64,000 bases of DNA from a virus. Shown here in pieces: positions 1 through 50,835 of the stretch. A model generated the notes under the pieces. It was given only the letters and a program-made list of their open reading frames with translations, was not told where the DNA came from and searched no databases. The stretch lies in UHGV virus genome UHGV-0373904; one strand, given 5' to 3'. How positions within the stretch are numbered: the stretch's first letter is position 1; every line of letters begins with the position of its first letter. The translations under genes were made by a program, and so were the position numbers.

Positions 1-95
1 TTAGTATAAAGTACTTTACAAGGGGCTTATAGTTCGATAAAGTAAGCCCCAGATAAAGAGCTTTACCACTAAATCCTAAATTGGAGAACTTAAAA
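1..95 (+). repeat. Early intergenic element copy 1 (near-identical to 806-894 and 1147-1235): hairpin ggggcttat..taagcccc plus conserved leader
   Basis: About 88-bp unit repeated 3x nearly identically. Contains TTTACA(15-20)-N17-TAAAGT(38-43) promoter-like spacing, GC hairpin 22-50 and leader ending in GGAG 9 nt before the ATG. Confidence 0.6.
15..43 (+). promoter_or_regulatory. Candidate sigma70-like promoter embedded in repeat element (TTTACA-N17-TAAAGT)
   Basis: Hexamers with 17-nt spacing seen in sequence; the same arrangement recurs in copies at 806-894 and 1147-1235. Non-canonical -10. Confidence 0.35.
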
Positions 96-500
96 ATGGC
101 TATTAATAATCGTGAATTATCAATCTTAAAAGCACGTTTGACCGTTAACCGGATTAATGTCATCACGTCATCAGCACCAGATGAAACACTGCAAAACATT
201 ATTGGAAAGATTCAAAGTGTTATCTTAGACGTTGAAAGTGTAAAAAACTCATTGGCTGACGTTGCAGCAGGTATCACGCTAGACGGTGCACAACATGAGA
301 TGTCCGACATGTTAGGCAAATCAAAGGTAATGAATAAAGAATTAGACTTGAAGATGTTTAGATTTGCTGTTAAAGTGTGGCTATCCGTCGAGTATGACGC
401 CAATTTTGCAATTGCTGATTTCTTTGCCACTTGGTTACAACGTAATTTGACAAATCATGATTTTCGTGATATCTGTGATGCAATTTATGCAGAACTCTAA
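96..500 (+). CDS. Hypothetical early protein
   Basis: ORF track gives 81..500 (TTG start); the ATG at 96 lies 9 nt after GGAG in the conserved leader. No recognisable motif. Confidence 0.55.
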   Translation: MAINNRELSILKARLTVNRINVITSSAPDETLQNIIGKIQSVILDVESVKNSLADVAAGITLDGAQHEMSDMLGKSKVMNKELDLKMFRFAVKVWLSVEYDANFAIADFFATWLQRNLTNHDFRDICDAIYAEL

Positions 501-535
501 AAAAAAAAAAACTGTTGACACTGATTTTTAGATAG

Positions 536-606
536 ATTAAATTACACATCAACGGGAGGCAATAACCTCCCTACTAAGTAAAGTCCTTAAACTAGGAGAT
601 TCTAAA
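536..606 (+). promoter_or_regulatory. Intercistronic hairpin (gggaggcaataacctccc) plus conserved leader ACTAAGTAAAGTCCTTAAACTAGGAGAT
   Basis: Same leader found upstream of ORFs at 2187, 3321, 3649; hairpin sequence differs but pairing is preserved. Confidence 0.55.
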
Positions 607-1146: not shown

Positions 1147-1235
1147 ATAAAGTACTTTACAAGGGGCTTATAGTTCGATAAAGTAAGCCCCAGATAAAGA
1201 GCTTTACCACTAAATCCTAAACTGGAGATTCAAAA
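1147..1235 (+). repeat. Early intergenic element copy 3
   Basis: Near-identical to 1-95. Confidence 0.6.
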
Positions 1236-2560: not shown

Positions 2561-2589
2561 TTGACAATCCCTCTTGACATTGGTAACTT
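2561..2589 (+). promoter_or_regulatory. Candidate sigma70-type promoter (A-tract, TTGACA, 17 nt, TAACTT)
   Basis: aaaaaaTGTTGACAatccctcTTGACAttggTAACTT; tandem TTGACA and inverted repeat ccctc/gaggg across the region. Confidence 0.45.
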
Positions 2590-2726
2590 TGTTCGAGGGG
2601 GTTTATCTAAAAGGGATTCACTTAAAAGATTCTTTATAGATAAACTTAAAAATTGCTTGCAATCACTTTCTAAAAATCCTATAGTATCTATCAAGCAAAA
2701 CAACTTCCTAAACTGGAGAAATCAAG

Positions 2727-3254: not shown

Positions 3255-3320
3255 AGTATCTATCAAGGGGAAGAAATCACTTCCCCACTAAATAAAGTCC
3301 TTAAACTAGGGGTTATCAAG
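3255..3320 (+). promoter_or_regulatory. Intercistronic hairpin (ggggaagaaatcacttcccc) plus conserved leader
   Basis: Leader CACTAAATAAAGTCCTTAAACTAGGGG. Confidence 0.55.
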
Positions 3321-3585: not shown

Positions 3586-3648
3586 TTACTAATTAACGGG
3601 GGATGACCTCCCCCACTAAGTAAAGTCCTAAACTGGAGAATCTAAATT
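3586..3648 (+). promoter_or_regulatory. Intercistronic hairpin (gggggatgacctccccc) plus conserved leader
   Basis: Leader CACTAAGTAAAGTCCTAAACTGGAGAAT. Confidence 0.55.
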
Positions 3649-3897: not shown

Positions 3898-3907
3898 TCG
3901 ACGCAGC

Positions 3908-3960
3908 GGGGCTAAATAGCCCCAGATACCTGAAAAGCTCCTTCTCATAGGGGCTTTTTT
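3908..3960 (+). terminator. Tandem terminator-like hairpins ending the + strand early cluster
   Basis: ggggctaaatagcccc (3908-3923), then aagctcc..ggggct followed by T6 (3935-3960). Confidence 0.5.
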
Positions 3961-5569
3961 ACGTCTATGTAATAGCCTCTATACAACCCTTTCCCTTTCC
4001 TTCCTAGAATCTATCCCACTAATTCGATAGAATCTATCTCATACCTTAAAAAGCAATAACTCTATAGTCTACTCTATAACCTTTTATCAAATCAACTTAA
4101 ATAAAAGCCAATAACCCCAGAAAGGGGATGGCCCATTTAAACGCTCTATAAAGCTCTATAACAGCCTTATCAACCTAACTTAAGGGATTGCATTAACCAA
4201 CCTTAAAAAGCTCTTTACAGGGCTTTATAGAGGCTTAAAAGAATCTTATAAGGTTATAAGCTTTATTATCTCGTTAGCTATCTTGTGAATATCTAAAAAG
4301 GGCTTGTTAGTGTCTTAAAAGTATGTTATAGGGGCTTAAAAGTTACTTCAAAGTTACGTAAAAGAAGCTATGAAGTTACGTAAATGCTAGCCCCCTTAAC
4401 ATTTTCTTAACAATTTCTTAACAATCCCTACATAGTTATGCTTGTTAGAGACTTGTTAGCCCCTTGTTAAATCTCTGTTAAGACCACGTAAAAGCCTTGT
4501 AAGAACCTTTGACATAGCCTTTAAAGCCCCTGTAAAGCCCTATAAAGAGGTATCTGTACAGTTGGGGTGTAATTACTAGGAAGAGGCTTAAAAGGGCTTA
4601 CAAGGAGCTATAGAGAGCTTTTAAGAGGTATGTTTAAGGAATCACTAAGAAAGGAAAGGGAACGATAAGAAAGAGATAGTGACCATGTTAATAGCTTGTT
4701 AAAAAGATTAAACACTTGTTAGAGACTTGTTAATTATCTTAACAAAATAACTCTTAAAAATTAACTTGTTAGCTCTTGTTAGTCATCTGTTAAGACTCTG
4801 TAAAGACCATGTATCGACTGTTAAGAACTTGTTACAGCCTTGTTAGTTCTGTTAAGAATCTGTTAAGACCTCTGAAGAGATGTTAAGAGATTGAGAGAGT
4901 TGTTAAGAGATTGTTAAGGATATTTTAAAATTCTGCAAAGTACTTGTAAGGGAGCTGTTAAGGGCTACCAAGCAGATATACATCTTCTACAGATATTTTT
5001 CAGTTCCTTCAAAGACCCTAAAAAATGACTTGATAGTCCTATTTTATAAAAATTTTAAAAATCTGAATAATTACCTATACAGTCTTTCTAAAATACAGGT
5101 AATAACAGGCTTATAAGATACCTTGTTAGTACCGTGTTAGACCTTGTGAGATAAGGTCTGTAAAGATATTCCTGTTAAGTTTGTTAAAACAGTCTATATA
5201 GAGGCTTAGTAATACCTAGTGAACACCTATAGAGAGTGTCATAGCTGACATAGAGATTAAGAGGTGTATAGGAGCTTCTAAGAAGGTGTAGAGAGATGGT
5301 TAAGGTGATTGTATAGGTTGTTAAGAAGGATTGTTAGAAGAGTGTTTAGAAGGGCTATTTAGAAGGGCTATACAGAGGGCTATTAAGACCACTAGATAGT
5401 TACTAAGATACTATATAGTACTATATAACTATATAGAGAGTAAGATTAAGAAGGTTGTTAAGAAGGATAGATATTTTATTCACATATGATGGTGACCCAG
5501 AGGTTGGGACAACCGATAAAATTTTATAAAAATTAAAAAGCCCCCAATTAAGGAGGCTCTTAAGATATT
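3961..5569. repeat. ORF-free 1.6-kb field of degenerate YTGTTARR / CTTAACAA repeats
   Basis: No ORF of 60 aa or more on either strand; about 30 copies of ttgttaag/ttgttaga/ctgttaag in both orientations, densest at 4395-4500 and 4715-4920; stop codons in all frames. Confidence 0.8.
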
Positions 5570-13815: not shown

Positions 13816-13856
13816 TTGACAAAGTACTTGACAAGGTGTAGGCTTATAAATACTTA
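13816..13856 (+). promoter_or_regulatory. Conserved tandem-TTGACAA element in divergent promoter region (second copy at 56649-56675)
   Basis: agTTGACAAagtacTTGACAAggtgt followed by tataaa; a near-identical 27-mer occurs at 56649-56675 in the other divergent intergenic region. Confidence 0.45.
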
Positions 13857-13965: not shown

Positions 13966-14337
13966 ATGAAAAACAGAACAAACAAAGGCCAGTTTAAAAA
14001 AGGCCAGTCTGGAAACCCATCTGGAAGACCAAAAGGCTCTCGTAACAAAAGCTCACTCGTAAAAGCTCAACTGACCATTGATAATTCTGCTGAGTTTGCT
14101 GCAAAGCTGTTTGAGGCGATTGTTACAAGGGATGCTGCTAAGCTTGCAGAGTTCGGGTTAAACACAGACGATGTAACCATCAAGAGTATGATTGAGGTCG
14201 GTAAAACTATCATGACTCACTCAGCAGGTGAGATGAAAGCAATTGCAGCAGACACTAAGAAGGCTCCTGATAACGGTGGTCAGTCTCAGACAGACAACAA
14301 ACCAACGTTCTCTGCTGTTGCAACCCTTAAAAAATAA
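13966..14337 (+). CDS. Hypothetical protein (123 aa), basic Gly/Pro-rich N-terminus
   Basis: ORF; N-terminus KGQFKKGQSGNPSGRPKGSRNK. Confidence 0.5.
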   Translation: MKNRTNKGQFKKGQSGNPSGRPKGSRNKSSLVKAQLTIDNSAEFAAKLFEAIVTRDAAKLAEFGLNTDDVTIKSMIEVGKTIMTHSAGEMKAIAADTKKAPDNGGQSQTDNKPTFSAVATLKK

Positions 14338-14349
14338 TTTTAAAAGATG

Positions 14350-14378
14350 TTGACAGACTCTATAAAGTTACTCTAAAG
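14350..14378 (+). promoter_or_regulatory. Candidate promoter with embedded 9-bp inverted repeat (tgacagact / agtctgtca)
   Basis: aaaagatgTTGACAgactctataaagttactctaaagtctgtca; the -35 hexamer forms one arm of the palindrome. Confidence 0.45.
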
Positions 14379-14418
14379 TCTGTCACATCAAACAACAAAT
14401 GAGAGAAGAGAGTAAAAT

Positions 14419-15834
14419 ATGAGCGAGTTATTTAAACATGCGCACCTTCATGCAGGTCGAACTGAAAATGGTGCTGTAAACCATACTTCATCAATGTCTG
14501 CTCTTGTAGATTTTTACAAAGCTGCTGGTTCAAGCCGTAGCAATGTAGAAATCTTACCAGACTTGTTCTACAAAGCTTTGCGTGAGGATGTTGATGTTGC
14601 AGTTCGTATTTTGCTTCACATGCGAGATGTACGAGAAGGTATGGGTGAGCGTAAAGCCTTCAGAACTGTTTTACTTCAAGCAATCGAAGACAAAGTTTTA
14701 GAGCCTACACAGGTTCTTCGTATTATGGATAAGATTGCAGAACTTGGTCGTTTTGATGACTTCAAAATCTTCGTAGGTACTCGTTTTGAGACAGATGCCT
14801 TTAAGCATTTAGAAGCAGCATTACTAGACCATGAGACAGCAGGTTTAGCAGCCAAGTGGTTACCACGAGTAAAACCACGACACAAACAGTTTGTAAAACG
14901 TTTCTGCAAGTTTGCTAACTTGAGTGAGAAAGAGTACCGCACACTGCTATCTGCACTGTCTGATACGGTTGAGCAAAAAATCTCTGCTAATGAGTTTGGT
15001 AAGATTGATTACAGCAAGATTCCTTCACTTGCTGCTGCACGTTACCAAAAACTGTTTAACCGTAAAGATGGAGAGCGCTACAAAGCTTACATCGAGTCCT
15101 TATCAAAGGGTGAGACTAAGATTAATGCTGGTGCTGTTTACCCATACGATGTGATTAAATCTGTTAAGTATGGTAATGCAGATGTTGCTAATGAGCAGTG
15201 GAAAGCACTACCAAACTGGATGGCAGAGGGTGAAAACATTCTATGTATGTCTGATGTTTCAAGTTCAATGTCTTGGGTGAATTTTGGTTCAATTACTGCT
15301 CTTGATATTGGTGTTTCACTTGCATTGTATGTAGCAGAACGTAATACAGGTTGCTTTAAGAATGAGTTGATGGTTTATTCAACAAACCCTCACTTCATTG
15401 AACTGAGTGGTGATTTACGAAACCGTCATCGTCAGGTAATGCGTCATGTTGAATACGGTTCAACTAACTTACAAGCAGCTTTTGACCGCATTCTTGAGAC
15501 AGGTAAGAGAAACAACTTGACTCAGAAAGATATGCCAAGTAAGCTTATCATCTTCTCTGATATGGAGTTCAATCAGGTTGACGGTGCAAATGGTCGTACA
15601 AACTTTGAAGCAATTCGTAGTAAGTACAAAAAAGCTGGATACGAAATGCCACAACTGGTATTCTGGTACTTAGCAAACCGTAGTGGTACTTGCGAAGTAT
15701 CTGTTAAGGATAACGGTGTAGCAATGGTATCAGGGTTCTCTCCAGCCACTTTAAAAGCTCTTCTTGGTGGTGAGAAGTTTGACCCAATCAGCGTAATGCT
15801 CAAAGCAGTAATGATTGACCGTTACATCTGGTAA
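14419..15834 (+). CDS. vWA-like (MIDAS motif) domain protein, 471 aa; TROVE/Ro60-like RNA-binding protein is a hypothesis
   Basis: C-terminal half has DxSxS in ILCMSDVSSSMS followed by hydrophobic strands (LIIFSDMEF); N-terminal ~260 aa looks helical. Sits directly upstream of the tRNA array. Confidence 0.55.
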   Translation: MSELFKHAHLHAGRTENGAVNHTSSMSALVDFYKAAGSSRSNVEILPDLFYKALREDVDVAVRILLHMRDVREGMGERKAFRTVLLQAIEDKVLEPTQVLRIMDKIAELGRFDDFKIFVGTRFETDAFKHLEAALLDHETAGLAAKWLPRVKPRHKQFVKRFCKFANLSEKEYRTLLSALSDTVEQKISANEFGKIDYSKIPSLAAARYQKLFNRKDGERYKAYIESLSKGETKINAGAVYPYDVIKSVKYGNADVANEQWKALPNWMAEGENILCMSDVSSSMSWVNFGSITALDIGVSLALYVAERNTGCFKNELMVYSTNPHFIELSGDLRNRHRQVMRHVEYGSTNLQAAFDRILETGKRNNLTQKDMPSKLIIFSDMEFNQVDGANGRTNFEAIRSKYKKAGYEMPQLVFWYLANRSGTCEVSVKDNGVAMVSGFSPATLKALLGGEKFDPISVMLKAVMIDRYIW

Positions 15835-15851
15835 AAAGTTTTAAAAAGGGT

Positions 15852-15880
15852 ATTGACAATGTGTTTAATACCCTTTAATA
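15852..15880 (+). promoter_or_regulatory. Sigma70-type promoter (TTGACA-N17-TAATAT) overlapping a 9-bp perfect inverted repeat
   Basis: aaaaagggtaTTGACAatgtgtttaataccctTTAATAT; inverted repeat aagggtatt / aataccctt spans -35 to the spacer. Confidence 0.65.
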
Positions 15881-15943
15881 TGTTCTACATAGAAACGAAA
15901 TGAGAGCTTTTCTAAGATACTGAAAAATATTTTAAAAAAGTTC

Positions 15944-15972
15944 TTGACAACCACTAAAAAATAATGTTAAAG
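15944..15972 (+). promoter_or_regulatory. Candidate promoter upstream of first tRNA (A-tract, TTGACA) with inverted repeat aaccact/agtggtt
   Basis: aaaaaagttcTTGACAaccactaaaaaataatgttaaagtggtt; -10 ambiguous. Confidence 0.4.
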
Positions 15973-15999
15973 TGGTTACATAGAGTTTGAAAAGTTTAT

Positions 16000-16076
16000 C
16001 TCTGTTTAGCTCAGCTTGGTAGAGCGTTCCGTTTGGGGCGGTAAGGCCGGAGGTTCAAGTCCTCCAACAGAGACCA
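16000..16076 (+). tRNA. tRNA-Pro (anticodon TGG)
   Basis: Manual fold: acceptor ctctgtt/aacagag, T-arm ggagg-ttcaagt-cctcc, anticodon loop ttTGGgg, encoded CCA. Confidence 0.75.
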
Positions 16077-16083
16077 AATTAAT

Positions 16084-16161
16084 GTTCCAGTAGACAAAAT
16101 GGTAAAGTCACCACTCTTTCAAAGTGGATATCTGAGGGTTCAAATCCCTTCTGGAACGCCA
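16084..16161 (+). tRNA. tRNA-Glu (anticodon TTC)
   Basis: Acceptor gttccag/ctggaac, anticodon stem ccact/agtgg, loop ctTTCaa, T-loop ttcaaat, CCA. Confidence 0.8.
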
Positions 16162-16162
16162 G

Positions 16163-16252
16163 TTTTGACAGAAGACCAATTACAGCAAACTTAATCTTAT
16201 TCATCTGAAGGTAAATCGGACAAAGAAGAGATTTGGTCTGGTCATTAAGAAT
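16163..16252 (+). repeat. tRNA-array spacer element copy 1 (CAGAAGACCAAT...ATTTGGTCTGG hairpin-bounded)
   Basis: 5' cagaagaccaattacagcaa and 3' tttggtctgg can pair (agaccaa/ttggtct). Confidence 0.55.
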
Positions 16253-16329
16253 TGCGGGTATAGAGAAAGGGCGTCTCACATGTCTCATTAGCATGGTATC
16301 GGCAGGTTCGACTCCTGCACCCGCCTCCA
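16253..16329 (+). tRNA. tRNA with anticodon CAT (Met or Ile2/lysidine type)
   Basis: Acceptor tgcgggt/acccgcc (1:72 mismatch), anticodon stem catgt/gcatg, loop ctCATta, T-arm gcagg-ttcgact-cctgc, CCA. Confidence 0.65.
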
Positions 16330-16330
16330 A

Positions 16331-16403
16331 TTTTGCAGAAGACCGTATTCAGCAACAAAATACTTTTGCGGATAAAAGAAAAAACACGGTCTGGCAATGT
16401 ATT
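16331..16403 (+). repeat. tRNA-array spacer element copy 2 (CAGAAGACCGT...ACGGTCTGG)
   Basis: Same flanking motif with compensatory change (agaccg/cggtct). Confidence 0.55.
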
Positions 16404-16405
16404 AA

Positions 16406-16482
16406 GGTTAGGAAGCACATAAGGTATGTGCGGTCGCCTGTTAAGCGAATGGCACAGGGTTCGAATCCCTGACTAACCGCCA
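16406..16482 (+). tRNA. tRNA-Asn (anticodon GTT)
   Basis: Acceptor ggttagg/actaacc, D-stem gcac/gtgc, anticodon loop ctGTTaa, T-arm caggg-ttcgaat-ccctg, CCA. Confidence 0.8.
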
Positions 16483-16490
16483 AATTAAAT

Positions 16491-16578
16491 GTGTCGTTAT
16501 CCCGTAGATGGTAGCGGTGGGGACTGTAAATCCCTTGTCATTGAGACTCGGTAGGTTCGACTCCTACACGGCACACCA
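16491..16578 (+). tRNA. tRNA-Tyr (anticodon GTA), long variable arm
   Basis: Acceptor gtgtcgt/acggcac, anticodon stem gggga/tccct, loop ctGTAaa, 15-nt variable arm, T-arm gtagg-ttcgact-cctac, CCA. Confidence 0.8.
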
Positions 16579-16583
16579 ATAAA

Positions 16584-16660
16584 GGCTATGTAGTTTAACT
16601 GGAGAAAATACTCCCCTGTCACGGGAGATGATGTGAGTTCAAGTCTCATCGTAGCCGCCA
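16584..16660 (+). tRNA. tRNA-Asp (anticodon GTC)
   Basis: Acceptor ggctatg/cgtagcc, anticodon stem ctccc/gggag, loop ctGTCac, CCA. Confidence 0.8.
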
Positions 16661-16720
16661 ATTTTGAGAGGGCTATTTAGCCCCTCCCTTAAAGGGTTCT
16701 TACGAGTATCCTTTAAAGGA

Positions 16721-16800
16721 GCAGAAGACCAAATACAGCAAGAACGTATGAAAATTTCAAGCCAATTTAATTTTGAAAAATTTAAAACTTGGTCTGGCTC
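16721..16800 (+). repeat. tRNA-array spacer element copy 3 (CAGAAGACCAAATACAGCAA...TTGGTCTGG)
   Basis: Same motif; preceded by terminator-like hairpin agggc-tattta-gccct and a TTAAAGG..CCTTTAA palindrome (16661-16716). Confidence 0.55.
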
Positions 16801-16940
16801 AACAAATTTACAGAAGACCGTTTACAGCAAAACTTAAACAATCTATTTCTCGGTAAAGAAAAGGCGAAGGTTCGATTCCTTCACTCGGCAGATGTCGAGT
16901 TGGTGTAATGGTAGCACTTAAGATGATAAACAACGGTCTG
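16801..16940 (+). repeat. tRNA-array spacer element copy 4 (CAGAAGACCGTTTACAGCAA...AACGGTCTGG) enclosing tRNA-like fragments
   Basis: 8-bp closing stem agaccgtt/aacggtct; the interior holds a T-arm plus 3' acceptor-like segment next to a 5' acceptor plus D-arm-like segment. Confidence 0.55.
16863..16920 (+). pseudogene. tRNA-like fragments (T-arm gaagg-ttcgatt-ccttc plus actcggc, then gtcgagt plus D-arm-like tggtgtaatggtagcac)
   Basis: A canonical T-arm with 3' acceptor-like strand is followed 4 nt later by a complementary 5' acceptor-like strand and a D-arm; no complete cloverleaf could be folded in normal order. Confidence 0.4.
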
Positions 16941-17090
16941 GTAATTATCTTTGTAGATAAGTTATTAAGCTTACCTGTGAGTATGCGACCACAAAGGGTG
17001 AAAGGGTAAATTCTAGATTTAAACCCAAAAAGGCACATCGCTACAGACCTTAAGCAAGTCTGGGTAGCTTATCTGCAAAGATAATTTAAT

Positions 17091-17166
17091 GGAAGTGTAG
17101 CAGAATGGTGATGCGGCAGACTTTTAATCTGACAGGCGATGGGTTCGAATCCCTCCACTTCTACCA
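17091..17166 (+). tRNA. tRNA-Lys (anticodon TTT)
   Basis: Acceptor ggaagtg/cacttct, anticodon stem gcaga/tctga (one mismatch), loop ctTTTaa, T-loop ttcgaat, CCA. Confidence 0.7.
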
Positions 17167-17244
17167 AATTCACCCTTAACTGAGAAACACCTGCGCGGCT
17201 GGAAACACCCACTCAACAGTTTCTCTAACTAGGGTACTTATTCT

Positions 17245-17321
17245 GGTTCAGTCGCAGATAAGGTAATGCAGGGGTTTCATAAGCCCTATGAATGTGGGTT
17301 CGATTCCCATCTGAACCTCCA
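17245..17321 (+). tRNA. tRNA-Met (anticodon CAT); GGG/CCC in the anticodon stem is initiator-like
   Basis: Acceptor ggttcag/ctgaacc, anticodon stem ggggt/gccct, loop ttCATaa, T-arm gtggg-ttcgatt-cccat, CCA. Confidence 0.75.
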
Positions 17322-17322
17322 A

Positions 17323-17398
17323 GCTGGTATAGTTAAGAAGGTTATAACACTCCCCTGATAAGGGAACATCGGTGGTTCGATTCCACCTACCAGCACCA
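17323..17398 (+). tRNA. tRNA-Ile (anticodon GAT)
   Basis: Acceptor gctggta/taccagc, anticodon loop ctGATaa, T-arm ggtgg-ttcgatt-ccacc, CCA. Confidence 0.75.
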
Positions 17399-17413
17399 AT
17401 TTCAATAAAGTTG

Positions 17414-17442
17414 TTGACATTGAGATGTGACTACTTTATAGT
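17414..17442 (+). promoter_or_regulatory. Sigma70-type promoter inside the tRNA array (TTGACA-N17-TATAGT)
   Basis: aaagttgTTGACAttgagatgtgactacttTATAGT. Confidence 0.65.
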
Positions 17443-17445
17443 AAC

Positions 17446-17733
17446 TAAAACACTTCATAATATGTATAATTCAAACACCAATACATGAGCGTTAGACGTA
17501 ACACAATGTGGGGAAATTTGTTGTACATATTCTGAATAGTTTTCGTTGCGTAGCGTCTATTTTGAAAATTTAAAATAAATGCAAACGACAATGTTTTTCT
17601 GGCAGTAGCTTGATAGGCTAAACACCAGTGAGGTCTTCCAATCCCTCATCAAAGAATTTGGCGTACTCGCCCACGGTATGATTAATAAGGTGGGCATCTT
17701 TAAGGGCTTTCTAAGAGAGTCTTTAAAGATAAT
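17446..17733 (+). other. ORF-poor 290-nt segment downstream of a promoter inside the tRNA array; candidate non-coding RNA locus
   Basis: No tRNA fold found, no ORF of 60 aa or more; lies between promoter 17414-17442 and tRNA-Arg. Confidence 0.35.
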
Positions 17734-17810
17734 GCACCCTTAGTTCAATTGGATAGAGCAACGGTCTTCTAAATCGTTAGTTACAGGTTCGAATCCTGTA
17801 GGGTGTACCA
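17734..17810 (+). tRNA. tRNA-Arg (anticodon TCT)
   Basis: Acceptor gcaccct/agggtgt, D-arm gttcaattggatagagc, anticodon stem acggt/atcgt, loop ctTCTaa, T-arm acagg-ttcgaat-cctgt, CCA. Confidence 0.8.
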
Positions 17811-17952
17811 AATAGTTAGCAGATTACTTAGACGGCCTTAGCGGGTCTTCCTGTAGGGAGGTGGTCTGTATCTCATGTTTTCCAGAACATGTAAATAATC
17901 TGAGAAGAGGCTTGACAGTGTTGAGATAACAGGGTAAGCTTCGAATTATAAT

Positions 17953-18035
17953 ATGGGACGATGTTAAGACTCTAAGGCATGAGCAACGGCCTCCAAAACC
18001 GTTTCAAAGGGGTTCAACTCCTCCGTCCCATGCCA
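17953..18035 (+). tRNA. Non-canonical tRNA-like gene (possible anticodon CCA, Trp) with expanded D region and enlarged anticodon loop
   Basis: Perfect 7-bp acceptor atgggac/gtcccat plus GCCA end and T-arm agggg-ttcaact-cctcc; anticodon stem aacgg/ccgtt encloses a 9-nt loop cctccaaaa; D region is about 6 nt too long to fold canonically. Confidence 0.4.
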
Positions 18036-18048
18036 AAGTCTTATTAGG

Positions 18049-18136
18049 GGTAGGTAGCGGCTAATGGTAGCCAAACTGTCTTGAAAACAGTTGCCACTGT
18101 AGAGATACGGTGAGGGTTCGACTCCTTTACTTACCG
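18049..18136 (+). tRNA. tRNA-Ser (anticodon TGA), class II with long variable arm
   Basis: Acceptor ggtaggt/acttacc, anticodon stem actgt/acagt, loop ctTGAaa, ~20-nt variable arm, T-loop ttcgact; CCA not encoded. Confidence 0.75.
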
Positions 18137-18289
18137 CCTAATAAGATTTACTCCGTCCATGCTTGTTCGCATTGTCGGTTTATCCCTCGTGTATTGTCGT
18201 ACACTGTCAAAGCACCTAGTAGGTGTCACGGAGAAGAGATAATATCAAGCTCTCCAAAGGTTCTAGTCACCGGATTAAACAAGACTATG

Positions 18290-18312
18290 CAAAGACCTAT
18301 TTAGGTCTTTTT
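18290..18312 (+). terminator. Rho-independent terminator inside the tRNA array
   Basis: agaccta-ttt-aggtct perfect hairpin followed by ttttt. Confidence 0.6.
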
Positions 18313-18391
18313 AGAGGGCTTCTAAGGTTATTACAGCTTGTTGTGGAACCTTGTTGCTTAGGTTCTTAGAAGTTCTCTAAAAAGATTTAAT

Positions 18392-18468
18392 GCACCTATA
18401 GCCCAACTGGTAGAGGCAGCAGACTTAGAATCTGCTCAGTGTGAGTTCGAATCTCTCTAGGTGTACCA
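18392..18468 (+). tRNA. tRNA with anticodon TAG (Leu by code) but short variable region
   Basis: Acceptor gcaccta/taggtgt (close paralog of tRNA-Arg TCT), anticodon stem gcaga/tctgc, loop ctTAGaa, 5-nt variable region, T-loop ttcgaat, CCA. Confidence 0.6.
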
Positions 18469-18475
18469 AATTAAT

Positions 18476-18551
18476 GCAGGTGTAGCAAAATGGTTATGCG
18501 GCTGACTCTTAATCAGTAAGACGATGGGTTCAATTCCCTCCACCTGTACCA
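18476..18551 (+). tRNA. tRNA-Lys (anticodon CTT)
   Basis: Acceptor gcaggtg/cacctgt, anticodon stem gctga/tcagt, loop ctCTTaa, T-loop ttcaatt, CCA; paralog of tRNA-Lys TTT. Confidence 0.65.
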
Positions 18552-18557
18552 AACATT

Positions 18558-18633
18558 GGGGTCATAGTTTATATGGTTAAAATTCGAGTTTTGCAAACTT
18601 GGGAACTGAGTTCAATTCTCAGTGACTCCACCA
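18558..18633 (+). tRNA. tRNA-Ala (anticodon TGC)
   Basis: Acceptor ggggtca/tgactcc (G3-U70), anticodon stem cgagt/acttg, loop ttTGCaa, T-arm ctgag-ttcaatt-ctcag, CCA. Confidence 0.75.
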
Positions 18634-18639
18634 ATTAGT

Positions 18640-18714
18640 GCATCCATAGTTTAAACGGGAAAATTACAGTCTTCCAAACTGAGGTTGAGGGTTCGATTCC
18701 CTCTGGATGCTCCA
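18640..18714 (+). tRNA. tRNA-Gly (anticodon TCC)
   Basis: Acceptor gcatcca/tggatgc, anticodon loop ctTCCaa, T-arm gaggg-ttcgatt-ccctc, CCA. Confidence 0.7.
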
Positions 18715-18721
18715 AATTAAT

Positions 18722-18797
18722 GCTCCTATCGTATAATTGGCTATTACGGTTGCCTTGTAAGCAACTTATCAGGGTTCGAATCCTTGTGGGAGCACCA
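18722..18797 (+). tRNA. tRNA-Thr (anticodon TGT)
   Basis: Acceptor gctccta/tgggagc, anticodon stem gttgc/gcaac, loop ctTGTaa, T-arm caggg-ttcgaat-ccttg, CCA. Confidence 0.8.
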
Positions 18798-18887
18798 ATT
18801 CAGAGGTCAAGTGAAAGACCGCTTTGAGTCAACTGAAGACCGTAACAAATTCCACGGAGTTGAGTTAGCGGCACAACTCCAGACCTC
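18793..18887 (+). repeat. Structured spacer (agaggtc ... gacctct outer stem, inner hairpin ggagttg..caactcc, GAAGACCG motif)
   Basis: Nested inverted repeats; contains ctgaagaccgtaacaaa related to the CAGAAGACC spacer family. Confidence 0.45.
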
Positions 18888-18893
18888 TTTCAT

Positions 18894-18968
18894 ACTCGCT
18901 TAGTTTATATGGTAAAACATCACCCTTACAAGATGAAGAAAAAGGTTCAAGTCCTTTAGTGAGTACCA
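18894..18968 (+). tRNA. tRNA-Val (anticodon TAC)
   Basis: Acceptor actcgct/agtgagt, D-stem gttt/aaac, anticodon loop ctTACaa, T-arm aaagg-ttcaagt-ccttt, CCA. Confidence 0.7.
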
Positions 18969-18969
18969 T

Positions 18970-19047
18970 GTTCCAGTATCCCAATTGGCAGAGGATGCAA
19001 GCTCAAACCTTGTACTAGTGACGGTTCGAATCCGTCTTGGAACACCA
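18970..19047 (+). tRNA. tRNA with anticodon CAA (Leu by code) but short variable region
   Basis: Acceptor gttccag/ttggaac, anticodon stem gcaag/cttgt, loop ctCAAac, 6-nt variable region, T-arm gacgg-ttcgaat-ccgtc, CCA. Confidence 0.65.
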
Positions 19048-19052
19048 ATTTT

Positions 19053-19128
19053 GCAGGATTAGTTCAAATGGATAGAGCAACAGTCTACGAAGCTGTTAGT
19101 AGGGGTTCGAATCCCTTATCCTGCGCCA
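19053..19128 (+). tRNA. tRNA-Arg (anticodon ACG)
   Basis: Acceptor gcaggat/atcctgc, anticodon stem acagt/gctgt, loop ctACGaa, T-loop ttcgaat, CCA. Confidence 0.75.
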
Positions 19129-19146
19129 GATAAGCAAGAGGAATTT

Positions 19147-19389
19147 ATGCAAACATTAATCGTCGTTGAACATGAAAATCCCAATAGTATTGAGTTTGTA
19201 AGGGTTCCCACTATAGATACTCACATTTTCTTGAAAGTCGGATGGGAATGCGACCCGATAAAAGTAGGAAAATTTCTTGGTCATTACTTTGGTGGAAGAC
19301 AATTTAAAAGTATCAATTTTGAGACAGTATTACCAGAAAACTCAGAAACAGACAATAATACTTACCTCCTTACGAGGATTAGACAATGA
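19147..19389 (+). CDS. Hypothetical protein (80 aa) embedded in the tRNA array
   Basis: ORF with upstream aagaggaa RBS-like sequence. Confidence 0.4.
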   Translation: MQTLIVVEHENPNSIEFVRVPTIDTHIFLKVGWECDPIKVGKFLGHYFGGRQFKSINFETVLPENSETDNNTYLLTRIRQ

Positions 19390-19943
19390 GATACTTAAAA
19401 TATGTTTCATGGATTTTCTTAGCTTTGTTAGAACCATTTGCAGCAACCCTAGCAGTCATCTTAGCACCTTTCGTAGTTCCATTCTACAGTGAGAAGAAAG
19501 GGCATCTACCTTTTGGATTCAGATGGACGGAGACCTATGACAACCCTATTGATGGTGACAAAGGCCACGTTGAGAGATGGGCTAAGATTAGAAAGATTGG
19601 TAAGCTTGGTGTCTACATGCAGAGAGTTGGATGGCTCTGGAGAAACAAAGCTTATAACTTCTCTTACCATGTATTAGGAAGAGATGTAAAAGACGTTACT
19701 AAGTGGAAAGGTAATATCAACGTAAGTTCTAACCCTGAAGATAATCAAACAGGTTATCTCCTAATGTGGAACAGTAATGCTTGGGGATTATTCGCTTTTA
19801 TCCCATCAATTAAAATCTTTGGTAAACAGTTTTACTGGAGAATTTATATTGGATGGAAACTTAAAAGTGTTGTCCCAGAAGAAAGAGCATTCTCAAGGGA
19901 AAGAGTTATGTTGGCATTCTTTATTCATCCACTGAGAAAGTAA
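19386..19943 (+). CDS. Hypothetical membrane protein (185 aa) embedded in the tRNA array
   Basis: N-terminal hydrophobic segment WIFLALLEPFAATLAVILAPFVVPF; 4-nt overlap with the upstream ORF. Confidence 0.45.
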   Translation: MRYLKYVSWIFLALLEPFAATLAVILAPFVVPFYSEKKGHLPFGFRWTETYDNPIDGDKGHVERWAKIRKIGKLGVYMQRVGWLWRNKAYNFSYHVLGRDVKDVTKWKGNINVSSNPEDNQTGYLLMWNSNAWGLFAFIPSIKIFGKQFYWRIYIGWKLKSVVPEERAFSRERVMLAFFIHPLRK

Positions 19944-19951
19944 AGATTTAA

Positions 19952-20027
19952 AGGGGATTAGTTTACAAGGTTAAAACCTCGGTCTTTGAAATCGAAGAAG
20001 TTGGTTCAATTCCAACATCCCCCGCCA
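19952..20027 (+). tRNA. tRNA-Gln (anticodon TTG)
   Basis: Acceptor aggggat/atccccc (1:72 mismatch), D-stem gttt/aaac, anticodon stem tcggt/atcga, loop ctTTGaa, T-arm gttgg-ttcaatt-ccaac, CCA. Confidence 0.7.
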
Positions 20028-20029
20028 AT

Positions 20030-20108
20030 GCTCCATTACTCCAATTGGCAGAGAGGCCAGACTTAAAATCTGTGTTATGTATCGGTTCGAATCCGATATG
20101 GAGTACCA
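20030..20108 (+). tRNA. tRNA with anticodon TAA (Leu by code) but short variable region
   Basis: Acceptor gctccat/atggagt, anticodon loop ctTAAaa, 7-nt variable region, T-arm atcgg-ttcgaat-ccgat, CCA; paralog of the CAA tRNA at 18970. Confidence 0.65.
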
Positions 20109-20113
20109 AATTT

Positions 20114-20189
20114 AGCGGTATAGCATAACTGGCAATGCAACAGTCTCTGAAGCTGTCCTATTAAGGTTCAAATCCTTATGCCGCTGCCA
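20114..20189 (+). tRNA. tRNA-Gln (anticodon CTG)
   Basis: Acceptor agcggta/tgccgct, D-stem gcat/atgc, anticodon stem acagt/gctgt, loop ctCTGaa, T-arm taagg-ttcaaat-cctta, CCA. Confidence 0.7.
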
Positions 20190-20220
20190 CTTCTAAGGAT
20201 TCTTACGAGAGTCCTTAAAT

Positions 20221-20296
20221 GTGGCCTTATCATAAAAGGTAATGACCCATGCTGTGAACATGGTCTATACGGGTTCAAATCCCGTAGGTCACCCCA
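20221..20296 (+). tRNA. tRNA-His (anticodon GTG)
   Basis: Acceptor gtggcct/aggtcac, D-stem tcat/atga, anticodon stem ccatg/catgg, loop ctGTGaa, T-arm acggg-ttcaaat-cccgt, CCA; no encoded G-1. Confidence 0.75.
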
Positions 20297-20301
20297 ATTT
20301 A

Positions 20302-20378
20302 TAGTCCAAGTAGCTTATATGGTTAAAGCGCGTGTCTGAAAAACATGAGAAGAGGGTTCAAATCCCACTGGACTACCA
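20302..20378 (+). tRNA. tRNA-Phe (anticodon GAA)
   Basis: Acceptor tagtcca/tggacta, anticodon stem cgtgt/acatg, loop ctGAAaa, T-loop ttcaaat. Confidence 0.7.
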
Positions 20379-20394
20379 ATTTCAAAGGTGCTTA

Positions 20395-21129
20395 ATGAAA
20401 GAGATGACAGAACAAGGTAAGGAGATTTTTAATCTCTTAAAAACTGGTAAAGGGTTTTCTAACCCCCTTATTACTGGTGCAGCAGTTCTCGGTGGAACCG
20501 TAGCTGCCTCTACATCACTTGTAAGCTCTATTAGCTCTGTATCAGACCCTACAGTAAAGGATAAGCTTGTTGCTGCTGGACTTACAACAGTTCTGCTTAA
20601 CAGCTTTACCACGAGTCTGACAAGCACTACATCAACTACCAAAACACTAACAGATTACGGTCAAAAGTCCATTGATGAGTTTTCATCACGTATGCAGGTA
20701 GCAAAAGGTTACTCTAATGTTATGGGTGCAGCAGGTGAACAAGTTGGCTGTACACCGTTTAGTGGTATTATGGGCGTTGCTACAGAATATGGTCAAAAAG
20801 CTATTGACACAATTAACAGTGCACTAGATGTCGTTAATGATGTATTAAGTGACTTACAAGATGCTATTGACAAAGGTCTTGATACTATTTCTGATTTAGC
20901 TAACCAAGCTGTTAGTAAGATTAATGAAGGTATTTCGAAGATTACAGCTTATGCAGATGAAGTTGTGCAGATGATTGAAGAAGAAGCTGCTCTTATTGCA
21001 GAGTACCTTAAAACGAATATCAATGGGTTCTTAGCAGGTATCTTACCAGACTGGTTTGATGATGCTTGTAAAACTGGTGTGATTGACACTATTGCAACAC
21101 CAGAAATGAAGAACGCATTACAGAAATAA
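20395..21129 (+). CDS. Hypothetical Ser/Thr-rich protein
   Basis: ORF track start 20332 lies inside tRNA-Phe; the ATG at 20395 is preceded by aaagg. Ser/Thr-rich low-complexity N-terminal region. Confidence 0.5.
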   Translation: MKEMTEQGKEIFNLLKTGKGFSNPLITGAAVLGGTVAASTSLVSSISSVSDPTVKDKLVAAGLTTVLLNSFTTSLTSTTSTTKTLTDYGQKSIDEFSSRMQVAKGYSNVMGAAGEQVGCTPFSGIMGVATEYGQKAIDTINSALDVVNDVLSDLQDAIDKGLDTISDLANQAVSKINEGISKITAYADEVVQMIEEEAALIAEYLKTNINGFLAGILPDWFDDACKTGVIDTIATPEMKNALQK

Positions 21130-21130
21130 T

Positions 21131-21223
21131 GGAAGATTAACCCTAAAAGGTAAGGGAGCAGTTTGCTAAACTGCCAGTAGCTGAGAAATCGGTGTACCAG
21201 TTCAAGTCTGGTATCTTCCTCCA
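21131..21223 (+). tRNA. tRNA-Ser (anticodon GCT), class II
   Basis: Acceptor ggaagat/atcttcc, anticodon stem gcagt/actgc, loop ttGCTaa, 21-nt variable arm, T-arm accag-ttcaagt-ctggt, CCA. Confidence 0.8.
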
Positions 21224-21227
21224 ATTT

Positions 21228-21303
21228 GAATCCGTGACAGAAATGGCTATGTGCCTGTCTGCAAAACAGGTTTATAAGGGTTCGAGTCCCTTCGGATTCT
21301 CCA
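21228..21303 (+). tRNA. tRNA-Cys (anticodon GCA)
   Basis: Acceptor gaatccg/cggattc, anticodon stem cctgt/acagg, loop ctGCAaa, T-arm aaggg-ttcgagt-ccctt, CCA. Confidence 0.8.
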
Positions 21304-21340
21304 AGTTATTTTACTCTCTCTCAATTAAAATAATAATAAT

Positions 21341-21400
21341 GCCCTGCTATAAGTATTCTTCCTTTCGCTACCGAAGAGTATTTTTAGACAGGGCTTTTTT
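21341..21400 (+). terminator. Rho-independent terminator ending the tRNA array
   Basis: Long imperfect hairpin gccctg...cagggc followed by tttttt. Confidence 0.6.
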
Positions 21401-21525
21401 ACAGAGCTATACTTTATAAGAAGACTTATACAGTATGTCTCTGACGTACATTGTGGTTTCTCCTTGACGGTCTCTGTGCCGTCTTTTTTAAGGGGAAACA
21501 TGGTTAATTATTTGGAGAAAACATA

Positions 21526-21726
21526 ATGAGCGAGACCGTTTATAAAGAACTTTATGAAGCTAACAAGAAGCTAGAATTTATGCAGAATACTATCATGGCA
21601 ATTGCAGACAGATTATCTGTAGCAACAGGCATTGATATTAAAGAAGCATCTATGGATGCACTTCTTGATGCTGTTGATGCAAAGTTCGAAGTTAAGAAAG
21701 AAGAGACTGCTACAGACTCTGAATAA
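21526..21726 (+). CDS. Hypothetical small protein upstream of terminase (66 aa)
   Basis: ORF preceded by ggagaaaacataATG; too small for a typical small terminase subunit. Confidence 0.45.
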   Translation: MSETVYKELYEANKKLEFMQNTIMAIADRLSVATGIDIKEASMDALLDAVDAKFEVKKEETATDSE

Positions 21727-23365: not shown

Positions 23366-24832
23366 ATGGCAGAAATTACAGAAACACAAGAAAGCTTACC
23401 ACCATTTAGAATGGGTGAAGTAGGTTCTTTGGGTCTGAAGGTTAAGAATGGAAGAATCTATGAAGAACCTCGTCAGGCACTAAGGTTCCCTGAAAGTATT
23501 AAAACTTTCCAATTAATGATGCGTGACCCTGCTGTAGCAGCATCTGTGAATATTATTAAGATGTTTGTCAGAAAAGTCAACTGGAGATTCGTACCTCCAA
23601 AGGGAAAAGAGCAAGACCCTAAAATGCTTGAAAGAGCAGACTTCTTTAATTCTTTAATGGATGACATGGAGCATGATTGGGCAGATTTTATTAACTCTGT
23701 AATGTCATTCTGCACTTATGGGTTCTGTGTTAACGAAAAGGTTTATAAGAAACGTCAGGGTAAAAAAGGAAAGTACCAGTCAAAATTTGATGATGGTCTA
23801 ATTGGGTGGGCTAAATTACCAATCAGAAACCAGTCAACACTTGATAAGTGGTATTTTGACGAAGACTTTAGGAAAGTTACTGGTGTTAGACAGAATCTGA
23901 GAAATGTTTCACATATTGCTGGAGCAATTAATCTTGGAGAAAGACCTCTAACAAGAAAACTTCCACGAGCTAAATTCATGCTGTTTAAGTATGACGATGA
24001 ATATGGAAATCCAGAAGGTCGTTCACCACTACTTAATGCTTATGTACCGTGGAAATATAAAGTACAGATTGAAGAGTATGAGGCTGTTGGCGTTTCAAGA
24101 GACTTAGTAGGTATGCCAAAGATTGGTTTACCACCAGACTATCTAGATGAAAATGCAGAACCTGAAAAGAAAGCTTTCGTACAATACTGCAAAACTGTTG
24201 TTAACGATATGATTGCTAATGATAGAGCAGGTTTAATCTGGCCTAGATATATCGACCCAGATACTAAAGAGGATATTTTTGAGTTCTCATTAGTTTCTAG
24301 ACAGGGTGCTAAAGCATACGATACAGGTTCTATTATTGACAGATATTCCAAGCAGATTATGATGGCATTTATGTCAGATGTTCTTGCTATGGGTCAGTCA
24401 AAATATGGTTCATTCTCTCTTGCAGATTCTAAGACGAGTTTACTAGCAATGTCAGTAGATATTCTGCTGAAGCAAATTAAGAACGTAATTAACCGTGATT
24501 TAGTTGCACAGACTTATGCTCTTAATATGTGGGATGATGAAGAACATGTACAAATCACATATGATGATATCGAAACTCCAGACCTTGAAGCAATTGGTTC
24601 TTATATTCAGAAGACTGTTGCAGTAGGTGCTTTGGAAGTTGACAAAGAGCTATCTAACAAACTTAGAGAGCATATTGGTCTCCCTCCTGCTGATGAGTCT
24701 CAGCCAGTATCTGAAAAGCTTTCTCCAAATAGCCAAAGCCGCTCAGGAGATGGTTATAAGACCGCTGGAGAAGGTACTGCAAAGACACCTTCAGCGAAAG
24801 ACCCAAGCACAGCAAATAAGGCAAATAAATAA
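23366..24832 (+). CDS. Portal protein (candidate)
   Basis: ~490-aa ORF immediately after terminase, acidic C-terminal region; call rests on position and size. ORF track start 23357 is GTG; ATG at 23366. Confidence 0.65.
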   Translation: MAEITETQESLPPFRMGEVGSLGLKVKNGRIYEEPRQALRFPESIKTFQLMMRDPAVAASVNIIKMFVRKVNWRFVPPKGKEQDPKMLERADFFNSLMDDMEHDWADFINSVMSFCTYGFCVNEKVYKKRQGKKGKYQSKFDDGLIGWAKLPIRNQSTLDKWYFDEDFRKVTGVRQNLRNVSHIAGAINLGERPLTRKLPRAKFMLFKYDDEYGNPEGRSPLLNAYVPWKYKVQIEEYEAVGVSRDLVGMPKIGLPPDYLDENAEPEKKAFVQYCKTVVNDMIANDRAGLIWPRYIDPDTKEDIFEFSLVSRQGAKAYDTGSIIDRYSKQIMMAFMSDVLAMGQSKYGSFSLADSKTSLLAMSVDILLKQIKNVINRDLVAQTYALNMWDDEEHVQITYDDIETPDLEAIGSYIQKTVAVGALEVDKELSNKLREHIGLPPADESQPVSEKLSPNSQSRSGDGYKTAGEGTAKTPSAKDPSTANKANK

Positions 24833-44654: not shown

Positions 44655-44733
44655 TCCCTTGTTGACTGATTGTTAAGATGGTGTTAATATTCTTTATGGG
44701 TATTCTCACCATCTTGGCTGATGAGGTGATTAA

Positions 44734-44928
44734 ATGCCTACAATCCTAGCAATTCTTCTAAAAAATCTAGGTAGCTTCTTCTGGAAACTCATTTTATCCC
44801 TTCTAAGTGAATACATGATTGAGAAAGTGTTCTTTAATCTTGCAAGATACCTTGCGAGTAAAACAGACACACCTATTGATGATGAGTTCGTAGATAACTT
44901 AGAAAAAGCTTTTAAGGGGGAGAAATAA
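44734..44928 (+). CDS. Small hydrophobic protein (64 aa); holin-like candidate
   Basis: N-terminal hydrophobic segment PTILAILLKNLGSFFWKLILSLL with charged C-terminus; sits after tail-fibre genes. Function is inference. Confidence 0.35.
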   Translation: MPTILAILLKNLGSFFWKLILSLLSEYMIEKVFFNLARYLASKTDTPIDDEFVDNLEKAFKGEK

Positions 44929-48821: not shown

Positions 48822-48865
48822 AATGACCTCAAAGTTATATTAAATTTTGTATTACATTGAGTATA

Positions 48866-48894
48866 AAAATAAGCTATAACACCTGACTTGTCAA
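48866..48894 (-). promoter_or_regulatory. Candidate sigma70-type promoter (- strand) for the secreted-protein gene
   Basis: - strand reads aaaatctgTTGACAagtcaggtgttatagctTATTTT, with A-tract upstream. Confidence 0.5.
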
Positions 48895-48940
48895 CAGATT
48901 TTATAGCTTATTTGGCAGATTTTTTATAAGGCTACTGCCA

Positions 48941-49015
48941 TCCTTCCAAACTATACCAAACCTAACCCCACCTAACCCCACCTAACCCTACCACACCAGA
49001 CCTAGCCTAACCTTG
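48941..49015. repeat. CA-rich, G-depleted low-complexity tract (CCTAACC / ACCAGACC-type heptamers)
   Basis: cctaaccccacctaaccccacctaaccctaccacaccagacctagcctaacc; almost no G on the + strand. Confidence 0.7.
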
Positions 49016-49048
49016 TTAAAAGACCCTCTTAAAGACCTTTTAAAAAGG
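49016..49048. repeat. Conserved 33-bp intergenic core, copy 1 (TTAAAAGACCCTCTTAAAGACCTTTTAAAAAGG)
   Basis: Identical 33-mer at 49148-49180 and 50427-50459; degenerate copy at 50590-50617. Confidence 0.75.
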
Positions 49049-49085
49049 TAAGTCTCATTTTAATGTAGCTGAGACTAACTACCCA
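49049..49085 (-). terminator. Hairpin agtctca..tgagact with T-run on the - strand
   Basis: On the - strand: agtctcagctacattaaaatgagact followed by tacctttttaaaa; repeated at 50460-50495. Confidence 0.5.
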
Positions 49086-50589: not shown

Positions 50590-50835
50590 TTAAAAACCCT
50601 CTTAGAAGACTCTTAAGTGATGTTGGTGAGTACCCGTTGGTTTATGCTGCTCAGTATACTCACCAAATTTTCTATGTCAACAACTTTATATAAAAGTCCT
50701 GATAACTATATGCGTTACAAAACAGAAGATTGTGAACAAGACACCCATTGCAAAGGATGTGTTCAAAAGCTTACTTGTGATGTAAGACAACACAAAGATA
50801 ACTAATGCAAACAGAATGATTGTACTTAACATAGT

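Follow-up and report, generated by a model that had tools for sequence, protein, structure and literature searches.

The closest described counterparts of the elements studied here are the PeSLs (promoter-early stem-loop) of T4-like phages, for which both promoter and terminator activities have been measured and circular cassette products looked for by inverse PCR, and which have a role in the shuffling of small genes and carry stems that differ by lineage (Arbiol et al. 2010, PMC2839356; Comeau et al. 2014, PMC4122927). The elements of the present phage resemble them in having a predicted sigma-70-type promoter, an AT-rich upstream tract and a stem-loop lying between -35 and -10 or over -10, and also in that gene gains and losses end in the element; repetition beside small genes of unknown function is a likeness of the type A modules. 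The nt-1 type of PeSL, A3-4 G3-loop-C3 T3-4 (PMC2839356, PMC4122927), resembles the hairpin at 15845. There are also differences. The phage here belongs to the Ounavirinae and is not T4-like, and some of its stems either join the spacer to the region from +20 to +30 or lie on both sides of the -35. Moreover, the repeats at 14351 and 15845 are single-copy sequences and not members of a repeat family, unlike the repeated type A modules of the early region (Table 1). With canonical intrinsic terminators the elements share a stem-loop placed soon after a stop codon and, at 15845 and 48867, a symmetry of A-tract, stem and U-rich tail, but their stems are AT-rich, their loops measure 8-32 nt and the U-tract is mostly partial or absent. 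Promoter function is linked to an inverted repeat in two other systems as well: at the promoters of the phage N4 virion RNA polymerase the hairpin itself, with a short stem and a 3-nt loop, is recognised, and in the single-strand promoters of conjugative plasmids a duplex stem recreates -35 and -10. Beyond this general likeness, the sites described here differ in having ordinary duplex sigma-70 hexamers and a hairpin of variable position.

The window analysed here is a stretch of 64,000 nucleotides, which we assign by sequence comparison to a Felix O1-like phage of the genus Felixounavirus. The 3 kb around the repeats match 261 phage records at 80-99% identity, all of them Felix O1-like myoviruses, the best match being Escherichia phage vB_EcoM-Ro111lw (97.5%). 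The repeats near 14351 and 15845 lie in short spacers between the DUF5681 gene, the DUF2828/DUF7788 gene, whose product is named 'RNA-binding protein' in RefSeq, and the tRNA units. About 40 genomes from Felixounavirus, Suspvirus and Mooglevirus were compared at these sites; other genera were reached by an alignment query, and single-protein queries gave close relatives only. Whichard et al. 2010 (PMC3185647), who described the Felix O1 genome, state that how this phage controls its transcription in time is unknown. Our literature search on Felix O1-like phages found neither transcript 5'- or 3'-end data nor a paper applying PeSL-type cassettes to them. The whole window was searched against Rfam with gathering thresholds, and 15800-21600 also with E<=1; only tRNAs and sub-threshold noise were returned, and the repeats are covered by no known RNA family. 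In addition, the gaps of the tRNA cluster at 16655-17090, 17399-17733, 17811-18048 and 18139-18391 show strong local structure and tRNA-like pieces with no called tRNA, where Rfam gives sub-threshold matches only (permuted tmRNA, 24.5 bits, E 0.048; tmRNA, 13.5 bits). The neighbouring 'RNA-binding protein' suggests that unannotated small RNAs may be present in these gaps.

Table 1. Inverted repeats, predicted promoters and surrounding genes in the window, with the arms of orthologous repeats in relatives
Feature	Position	Strand	Arms or hexamers	Remarks
Inverted repeat, 15845	15845-15854 / 15867-15876	+	AAAGGGTATT / AATACCCTTT	10 bp perfect, loop 12
Predicted promoter, 15853	-35 15853-15858, -10 15876-15881	+	TTGACA-17-TAATAT	sigma-70-type
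Inverted repeat, 14351	14351-14359 / 14377-14385	+	TGACAGACT / AGTCTGTCA	9 bp, loop 17
Predicted promoter, 14350	-35 14350-14355, -10 14374-14379	+	TTGACA-18-TAAAGT	overlaps 14351 repeat
Inverted repeat, 15949	15949-15955 / 15971-15977	+	AACCACT / AGTGGTT	7 bp
Predicted promoter, 15944	15944..15977	+	TTGACA-18-TAAAGT	for tRNA-Pro onwards
Inverted repeat, 2569	2569-2573 / 2595-2599	+	CCCTC / GAGGG	5 bp
Two TTGACA hexamers	2561-2566, 2574-2579	+	TTGACA	overlap imperfect GC-rich hairpin, 2561..2601
Predicted promoter with A/T-only 8-bp repeat	496..543	+	TTGACA (515-520)-17-TAAATT; TCTAAAAA / TTTTTAGA	
Predicted promoter downstream of ligase gene	50623..50680	-	TTGACA (50680-50675)-16-TATACT (50658-50653)	
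Inverted repeat, ligase-downstream	50623-50666	-	TTGGTGAGTA / TACTCACCAA	10 bp; spacer 3' end pairs with about +20 to +30
Ligase-downstream arms, Citrobacter phage Mordin			CCTGACGGGT / ACCCGTCAGG	
Ligase-downstream arms, L108			TAGTGGGT / ACCCACTA	
Ligase-downstream arms, Escherichia phage EP1			TCCGGTAG / CTACCGGA	
Ligase-downstream arms, L106			ACATAGCAAGT / ACTTGCTATGT	
Inverted repeat, 48867	48861..48913	-	AAATAAGCTATAA / TTATAGCTTATTT	13 bp; TTGACA (48894-48889) in loop
Two-tier RNA hairpin	44672..44718	+		just upstream of RBS of gene 44734-44928
Type A module	8..64	+	TTTACA (15-20)-17-TAAAGT (38-43)	early region
Type A inner stem	22-29 / 43-50	+	GGGGCTTA / TAAGCCCC	plus outer stem including -35
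Further type A copies	~809-865, ~1149-1205			
DUF5681 gene	13966-14337			
DUF2828/DUF7788 gene	14419-15834			
Cluster of 26 tRNA genes	after DUF2828/DUF7788 gene			

The repeats at 15845 and 14351 and the weaker sites

A preliminary description of this DNA had reported four inverted repeats at TTGACA promoters. All four are present in the sequence, within 1-2 nt of where they had been placed, and two of them exceed what shuffled sequence gives. Compared with 2000 dinucleotide shuffles of the promoter region, the longest inverted repeat has P=0.005 at 15845-15876 and P=0.0115 at 14351-14385 (fold z -2.3), whereas nothing beyond chance is seen at 15949-15977 (P=0.29) or for the pair of 5 bp at 2569-2599 (P=0.92). 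Taken strictly, the picture of the -35 hexamer as one arm of the repeat applies to 14351 only, where five of the six hexamer bases are included; the arm at 15845 takes in only TT, and that at 15949 only the last A.

The 15845 stem-loop begins 11 nt past the stop codon of the DUF2828/DUF7788 gene. As RNA, its stem extends to AAAGGGTATT(GA)...(TT)AATACCCTTT, with 12 pairs, a loop of 8, a folding energy of -13.5 kcal/mol and z -4.1. It passes a scan for the terminator pattern, defined as a GC-rich stem of at least 5 pairs, a loop of 3-8 and a U-rich tail within 2 nt, having 3 G-C among its 12 pairs and the tail AATATGTTCT. Among nine distinct variants of the hairpin, 99.1% of cells pair; the three varying pairs remain paired, as U·G or G-C, and no pair is changed on both sides. 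The arms are nearly invariant among relatives, and variation is seen at several of the eight loop positions that lie beyond the -35 hexamer. The predicted promoter lying within this stem-loop has an A-rich tract upstream and is directed to the tRNA cluster, with both hexamers invariant in all relatives, bar one -10 base in one of them (L020). The hairpin had already been predicted to be a terminator: Table 2 of the Felix O1 genome paper (Whichard et al. 2010, PMC3185647) includes among its predicted rho-independent terminators both t42, which is gggtattgacaatgtgtttaatacccttt at 23547-23575, and t43, the complement of t42, and the Felix O1 copy is, as judged by sequence, the orthologue of window 15848-15876. 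The promoter list of that paper (P11, P41, P45, P102, P117) has no promoter inside t42/t43, and the TTGACA-17-TAATAT inside the same hairpin goes unmentioned in the available portions of the text (PMC3185647). We also observed the start-region motif ACATAGA, common to both tandem promoters ahead of tRNA-Pro (15882-15890 and 15974-15982), which suggests a duplicated promoter.

The 14351 repeat begins 14 nt past the stop codon of the DUF5681 gene. Its right arm is invariant among relatives, save the outermost base in Mooglevirus; its left arm has only A-to-G and C-to-T changes, which leave G·T and T·G pairs, and most positions of the loop vary. No double compensatory change is found among about 40 relatives. 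The terminator pattern scan leaves this repeat unflagged (loop 17, no U tail), and the region folds better antisense (-20.6 kcal/mol) than sense (-16.2 kcal/mol). At the counterpart promoter in Kolesnikvirus (Erwinia phage Roscha1, L058) the repeat is absent, and these distant relatives gave no covariation for the cited sites, because the DUF2828 gene is missing and the 14351 repeat is not kept there. Two side observations concern this region: the promoter at 14350 is followed by ACATCAAAC, and L058 carries at 2440-2545 a tRNA-like segment with the T-arm motif GGGTTCGAGTCCC, without tRNA annotation, between the DUF5681 gene and tRNA-Pro, where the window has the DUF2828 gene. On the whole, the two cited repeats at 15845 and 14351 are above chance, and they are conserved and wobble-tolerant, with no compensatory double change.

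At 15949-15977, many relatives have uncompensated C->T, C->A and G->T changes, and the repeat is broken in Mooglevirus. The CCCTC / GAGGG pair at 2569 sits at the core of a longer hairpin that is GC-rich, imperfect and of RNA type and is followed by GUUUAUCU; as a whole the 2561-2601 hairpin reaches -15.4 kcal/mol in the sense direction (z -2.8) and -8.5 antisense. Two further candidates were rejected. The A/T-only repeat at 496-532 has P=0.02 against shuffles, yet negligible RNA structure (-2.7 kcal/mol, z -0.1), and the 8-bp repeat at 61178-61217, tried as a leader hairpin, lies inside a small ORF and is treated as chance because its variation is mostly spaced in threes and breaks the pairing. 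This plus-strand ORF (61172-61320, 49 codons), downstream of a promoter at 61136, is supported by the same spacing of the relatives' variation; simple ORF picking had favoured an ORF on the opposite strand.

Base pairing at related sites

Promoter-associated repeats beyond the earlier four were found around the minus-strand TTGACA of 48894-48889 (13 bp), at 50623-50666 (10 bp) and at 44675-44715 (9 bp). Downstream of the ligase gene, the promoter reads TTGACAt-N16-TATACT in all lineages, and in each lineage its spacer is base-paired, at the 3' end, to a segment lying 24-32 nt beyond. Five lineages have five different perfect arm pairs at an unchanged position, with the left arm always ending at the -10 hexamer; the four pairs compared with shuffles gave P = 0.0016, 0.0008, 0.032 and 0.027. 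The 48861-48913 repeat (P<0.0005 against shuffles; -17.8 kcal/mol, z -4.7) is followed by UU and TATACT (48866-48861) and is fully conserved in all relatives retaining the region. The hairpin at 44672-44718 overlaps a weak promoter-like TTGACT-17-TAATAT and folds to -23.7 kcal/mol (z -8.2), with only -12.8 antisense; a double change from C-G to U-A is found there in the Mooglevirus-type loci L105, L109 and L110.

The type A module is present in 3 copies in the window and in 13 distinct copies when relatives are included. Among 11 distinct copies, 99.5% of cells are paired, two pairs have double changes, and all one-sided changes give G·U or G-C. Variation of the -10 in the 11 copies is confined to TAnnnT, and it is therefore taken as a real promoter. 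Type A, 48867, 44672 and the Mordin-type ligase-downstream hairpin form helices in two tiers, about 18-19 bp in all and interrupted by an internal loop. Our comparison shows that selection acts on the potential for base pairing in this group of phages. The selection on pairing that the preliminary description had argued for is thus clear at related sites, namely the ligase-downstream promoter, type A and 44672-44718, but not at the sites on which it had based the argument.

Stem-loops and promoters in the intergenic spacers

Intergenic DNA has 17 inverted repeats of at least 8 bp, where shuffled sequence has 3.7 +/- 1.8 (about 4.6x; 0 of 200 shuffles reach 17), whereas coding DNA has 24 against 26.5 +/- 4.9, which is no excess. 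Among the 21 intergenic TTGACA hexamers, three share bases with an arm of a repeat of at least 7 bp, with 3.6 expected from the intergenic background of 17%, and four lie inside a repeat of at least 8 bp (background 11.9%). This was the comparison that the preliminary description had named as able to refute it, and the counts speak mostly against a link specific to promoters. Moreover, all scanned spacers of 40-420 bp fold to -10 kcal/mol or lower, with or without TTGACA, which is a weak criterion for 60-nt windows. Stem-loops therefore occur in nearly every intergenic spacer and are not a property of TTGACA promoters. As judged from the lengths, overlap of hairpin and promoter would be nearly unavoidable, because a promoter of about 30 bp and a hairpin of 30-45 nt share spacers of 60-165 bp.

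Across the sites the hexamers follow the pattern TTGACA or TTTACA, 16-18 bp, then TAnnnT, and 18-21 of the 25 bases upstream of the -35 are A/T, with A-runs, at 515, 2561, 14350, 15853 and 15944. The position of the stem takes three layouts: flanking the -35 (15845, 48867), reaching from the -35 or spacer to the -10 (14351, type A), or reaching from the spacer to +20-30 (50623, 44675). The spacers at 14338-14418, 805-894 and 1147-1235 agree with the layout of a PeSL; that at 15835-15999 leads to tRNA, not to ATG. A U-rich tail, partial at best, is present only at 15845, 48867 and 2569, and there is none at 14351 or at the ligase-downstream hairpins. The hairpins make poor canonical intrinsic terminators because their loops are long (8-32 nt).

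Several other elements were observed in the window. The early-gene spacers at approximately 548-606, 2132-2186, 3262-3320 and 3598-3648 have a GC-rich hairpin whose stem differs per copy (GGGAGG, GGGGAGG, GGGGAAG, GGGGGA), followed by the conserved leader ACTAA(A/G)TAAAGTCC(T)TAAACT(A)GGAGA and then ATG, with no -35 evident. TAAAGT recurs in early-gene spacers and is also the -10 of the 14350 and 15944 promoters. Near-identical elements of the form TTGACA-N6-TTGACAAGGTG lie at 13816-13838 and 56652-56674, in both divergent intergenic regions, where the direction of transcription changes; the two hexamers and AGGTG hardly change across about 30-40 relatives, and the 6-nt spacer varies freely. 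A looser (N7) version is found at 2561-2579. By its sequence this element could be a pair of tandem early promoters or a direct-repeat binding site. Finally, 1.7 kb without a convincing ORF (3898-5569), with the early genes that read rightward on one side and the block of leftward genes on the other, is dense in short motifs such as CTTGTTA(A/G), CTTAAAAG and CTATAAAG; it may serve as an origin or in partition, or mark a genome end.

Possible roles of the hairpins and exchange of small genes

We consider it somewhat probable, at roughly 55%, that the repeats are terminator- or attenuator-type RNA stem-loops overlapping sigma-70 promoters, in the manner of PeSL cassettes. The hairpins would act on RNA and terminate or attenuate transcription: the stem-loop would form in RNA reading through from the upstream gene and would stop or trim these incoming transcripts, and the embedded promoter would restart transcription for the next gene or the tRNA cluster. 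They would form only in upstream-derived RNA, because transcription from the promoter would start inside or beyond the 3' arm. The cited hairpins lie on the 3' side of the gene before them, starting 11-14 nt past the stop codon. Of the two options offered in the preliminary description, a hairpin in read-through transcripts is the better one, although its place is not at the 5' end of a transcript as had been supposed. In addition, the repeated cassettes would serve as recombination points at which small genes are gained and lost. The idea of a promoter-bound polymerase as a roadblock aiding hairpin termination was dropped, since it would require the terminating polymerase to lie within the footprint of the promoter.

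The other option offered there was structure in the DNA. Sense and antisense folding give a mixed answer, 8 sites favouring sense and 6 favouring antisense or neither, and the sense-strand G·U variants together with the strong sense bias of several hairpins favour RNA over DNA. Supercoil-driven cruciforms or single-strand hairpins that switch the embedded promoter would agree with the overlap of the repeats with core promoter elements and with the fixed abutment of the ligase-downstream left arm on the -10, and the perfect Watson-Crick arms at that promoter fit DNA and RNA alike. We nevertheless regard action at the DNA level as extremely unlikely. Extrusion of a cruciform is very unfavourable with loops of 12-32 nt, the repeat is placed differently with respect to the hexamers from promoter to promoter, the one-sided changes are sense G·U, i.e. 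G·T or A·C mismatches in DNA, and several hairpins are much stabler as sense RNA; instead of the short central spacer and strict Watson-Crick pairing of a cruciform, we find spacers of 12-32 nt and G·T in natural stems. Still harder to credit are operators for dimeric phage or host regulators controlling the promoters, as might be suggested by palindromic sequences over promoters in a phage whose temporal control is given as unknown in the genome paper cited above. One half-site sequence at all promoters is not what the repeats show: the arms differ per site and between orthologues with symmetry kept, as the preliminary description rightly held in arguing against a single shared operator, the arm spacing ranges from 12 to 32 bp, and the half-sites of 14351 are unequally conserved, the left one varying and the right one not. 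A related proposal, highly unlikely in our estimate, is that the stem-loops may act on promoters: through the pairing of the spacer with +20 to +30, which persists across the five arm sequences of the ligase-downstream promoter, an early promoter could be turned off or on by read-through RNA or by a hairpin formed transiently in the DNA. If true, it would be a structure-based timing device in a phage without a known polymerase-modifying factor.

If the hairpins act as RNA, they could be processing or stability elements (RNase III-type sites, or 3' hairpins shielding the upstream message from exonucleases) rather than terminators, their overlap with promoters being incidental. Such a role is a live alternative because most stems are without a U-tract, and the RNase III-type sites between T7 early genes provide a model for it; the sense-strand G·U pairs and the two-tier helices described above agree as well. 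We hold it unlikely, as the resemblance to the RNase III sites of T7 is a putative one, the 15845 hairpin fits the terminator pattern, and the stem-loops of the analogous T4-like cassettes terminated transcription in the reporter assays of the PeSL papers. Less probable again, and quite unlikely, is that the four cited repeats arose by chance in AT-rich DNA and appear conserved through overlap with conserved parts of promoters. Two of them do pair at chance level (15949-15977 and 2569-2599), TTGACA is not enriched in arms over the intergenic background, neither 14351 nor 15845 has a double compensatory change, and the 14351 repeat is missing in Kolesnikvirus. However, 15845 and 14351 surpass their shuffles, intergenic repeats as a class are in clear excess over expectation, and the right arms, which lie in the spacer/start-site region usually free of promoter constraint, are nearly invariant while the adjacent loop bases vary.

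The proposed PeSL-like cassettes can also be compared with the gene content of relatives. The segment 895-1137, with a 252-nt gene, is absent from phage TP1; the junction lies inside type A modules, and both modules flanking the segment match TP1's one module. Likewise, the two-gene segment 49208-50238, between the promoter/stem-loops at 50680 and 48894, is missing from EP1, Mordin, L106 and L108, which have a single composite element left at this place. Around this segment we further observed a 189-nt direct repeat of 76% identity on both sides, and 5-nt periodic repeat arrays (48940-49154 and 50346-50600) with ACC every five bases in 21 register-shifted copies, together with four copies of the 39-nt repeat ACCTTGTTAAAAGACCCTCTTAAAGACCTTTTAAAAAGG.

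As a general discovery the result is modest, the 15845 hairpin being an already predicted terminator and the architecture being known elsewhere; the novelty, also modest, is a known kind of element in a phage group for which we found no description of it in the literature. For the Felix O1-like phages, which are widely used in typing and biocontrol, PeSL-like cassettes would give a concrete, testable map of transcription units and would mark natural insertion points with their own signals for engineering. They would explain the swaps of small early genes between relatives, and would bring a mechanism so far described for T4-like phages only into a second subfamily of myoviruses.
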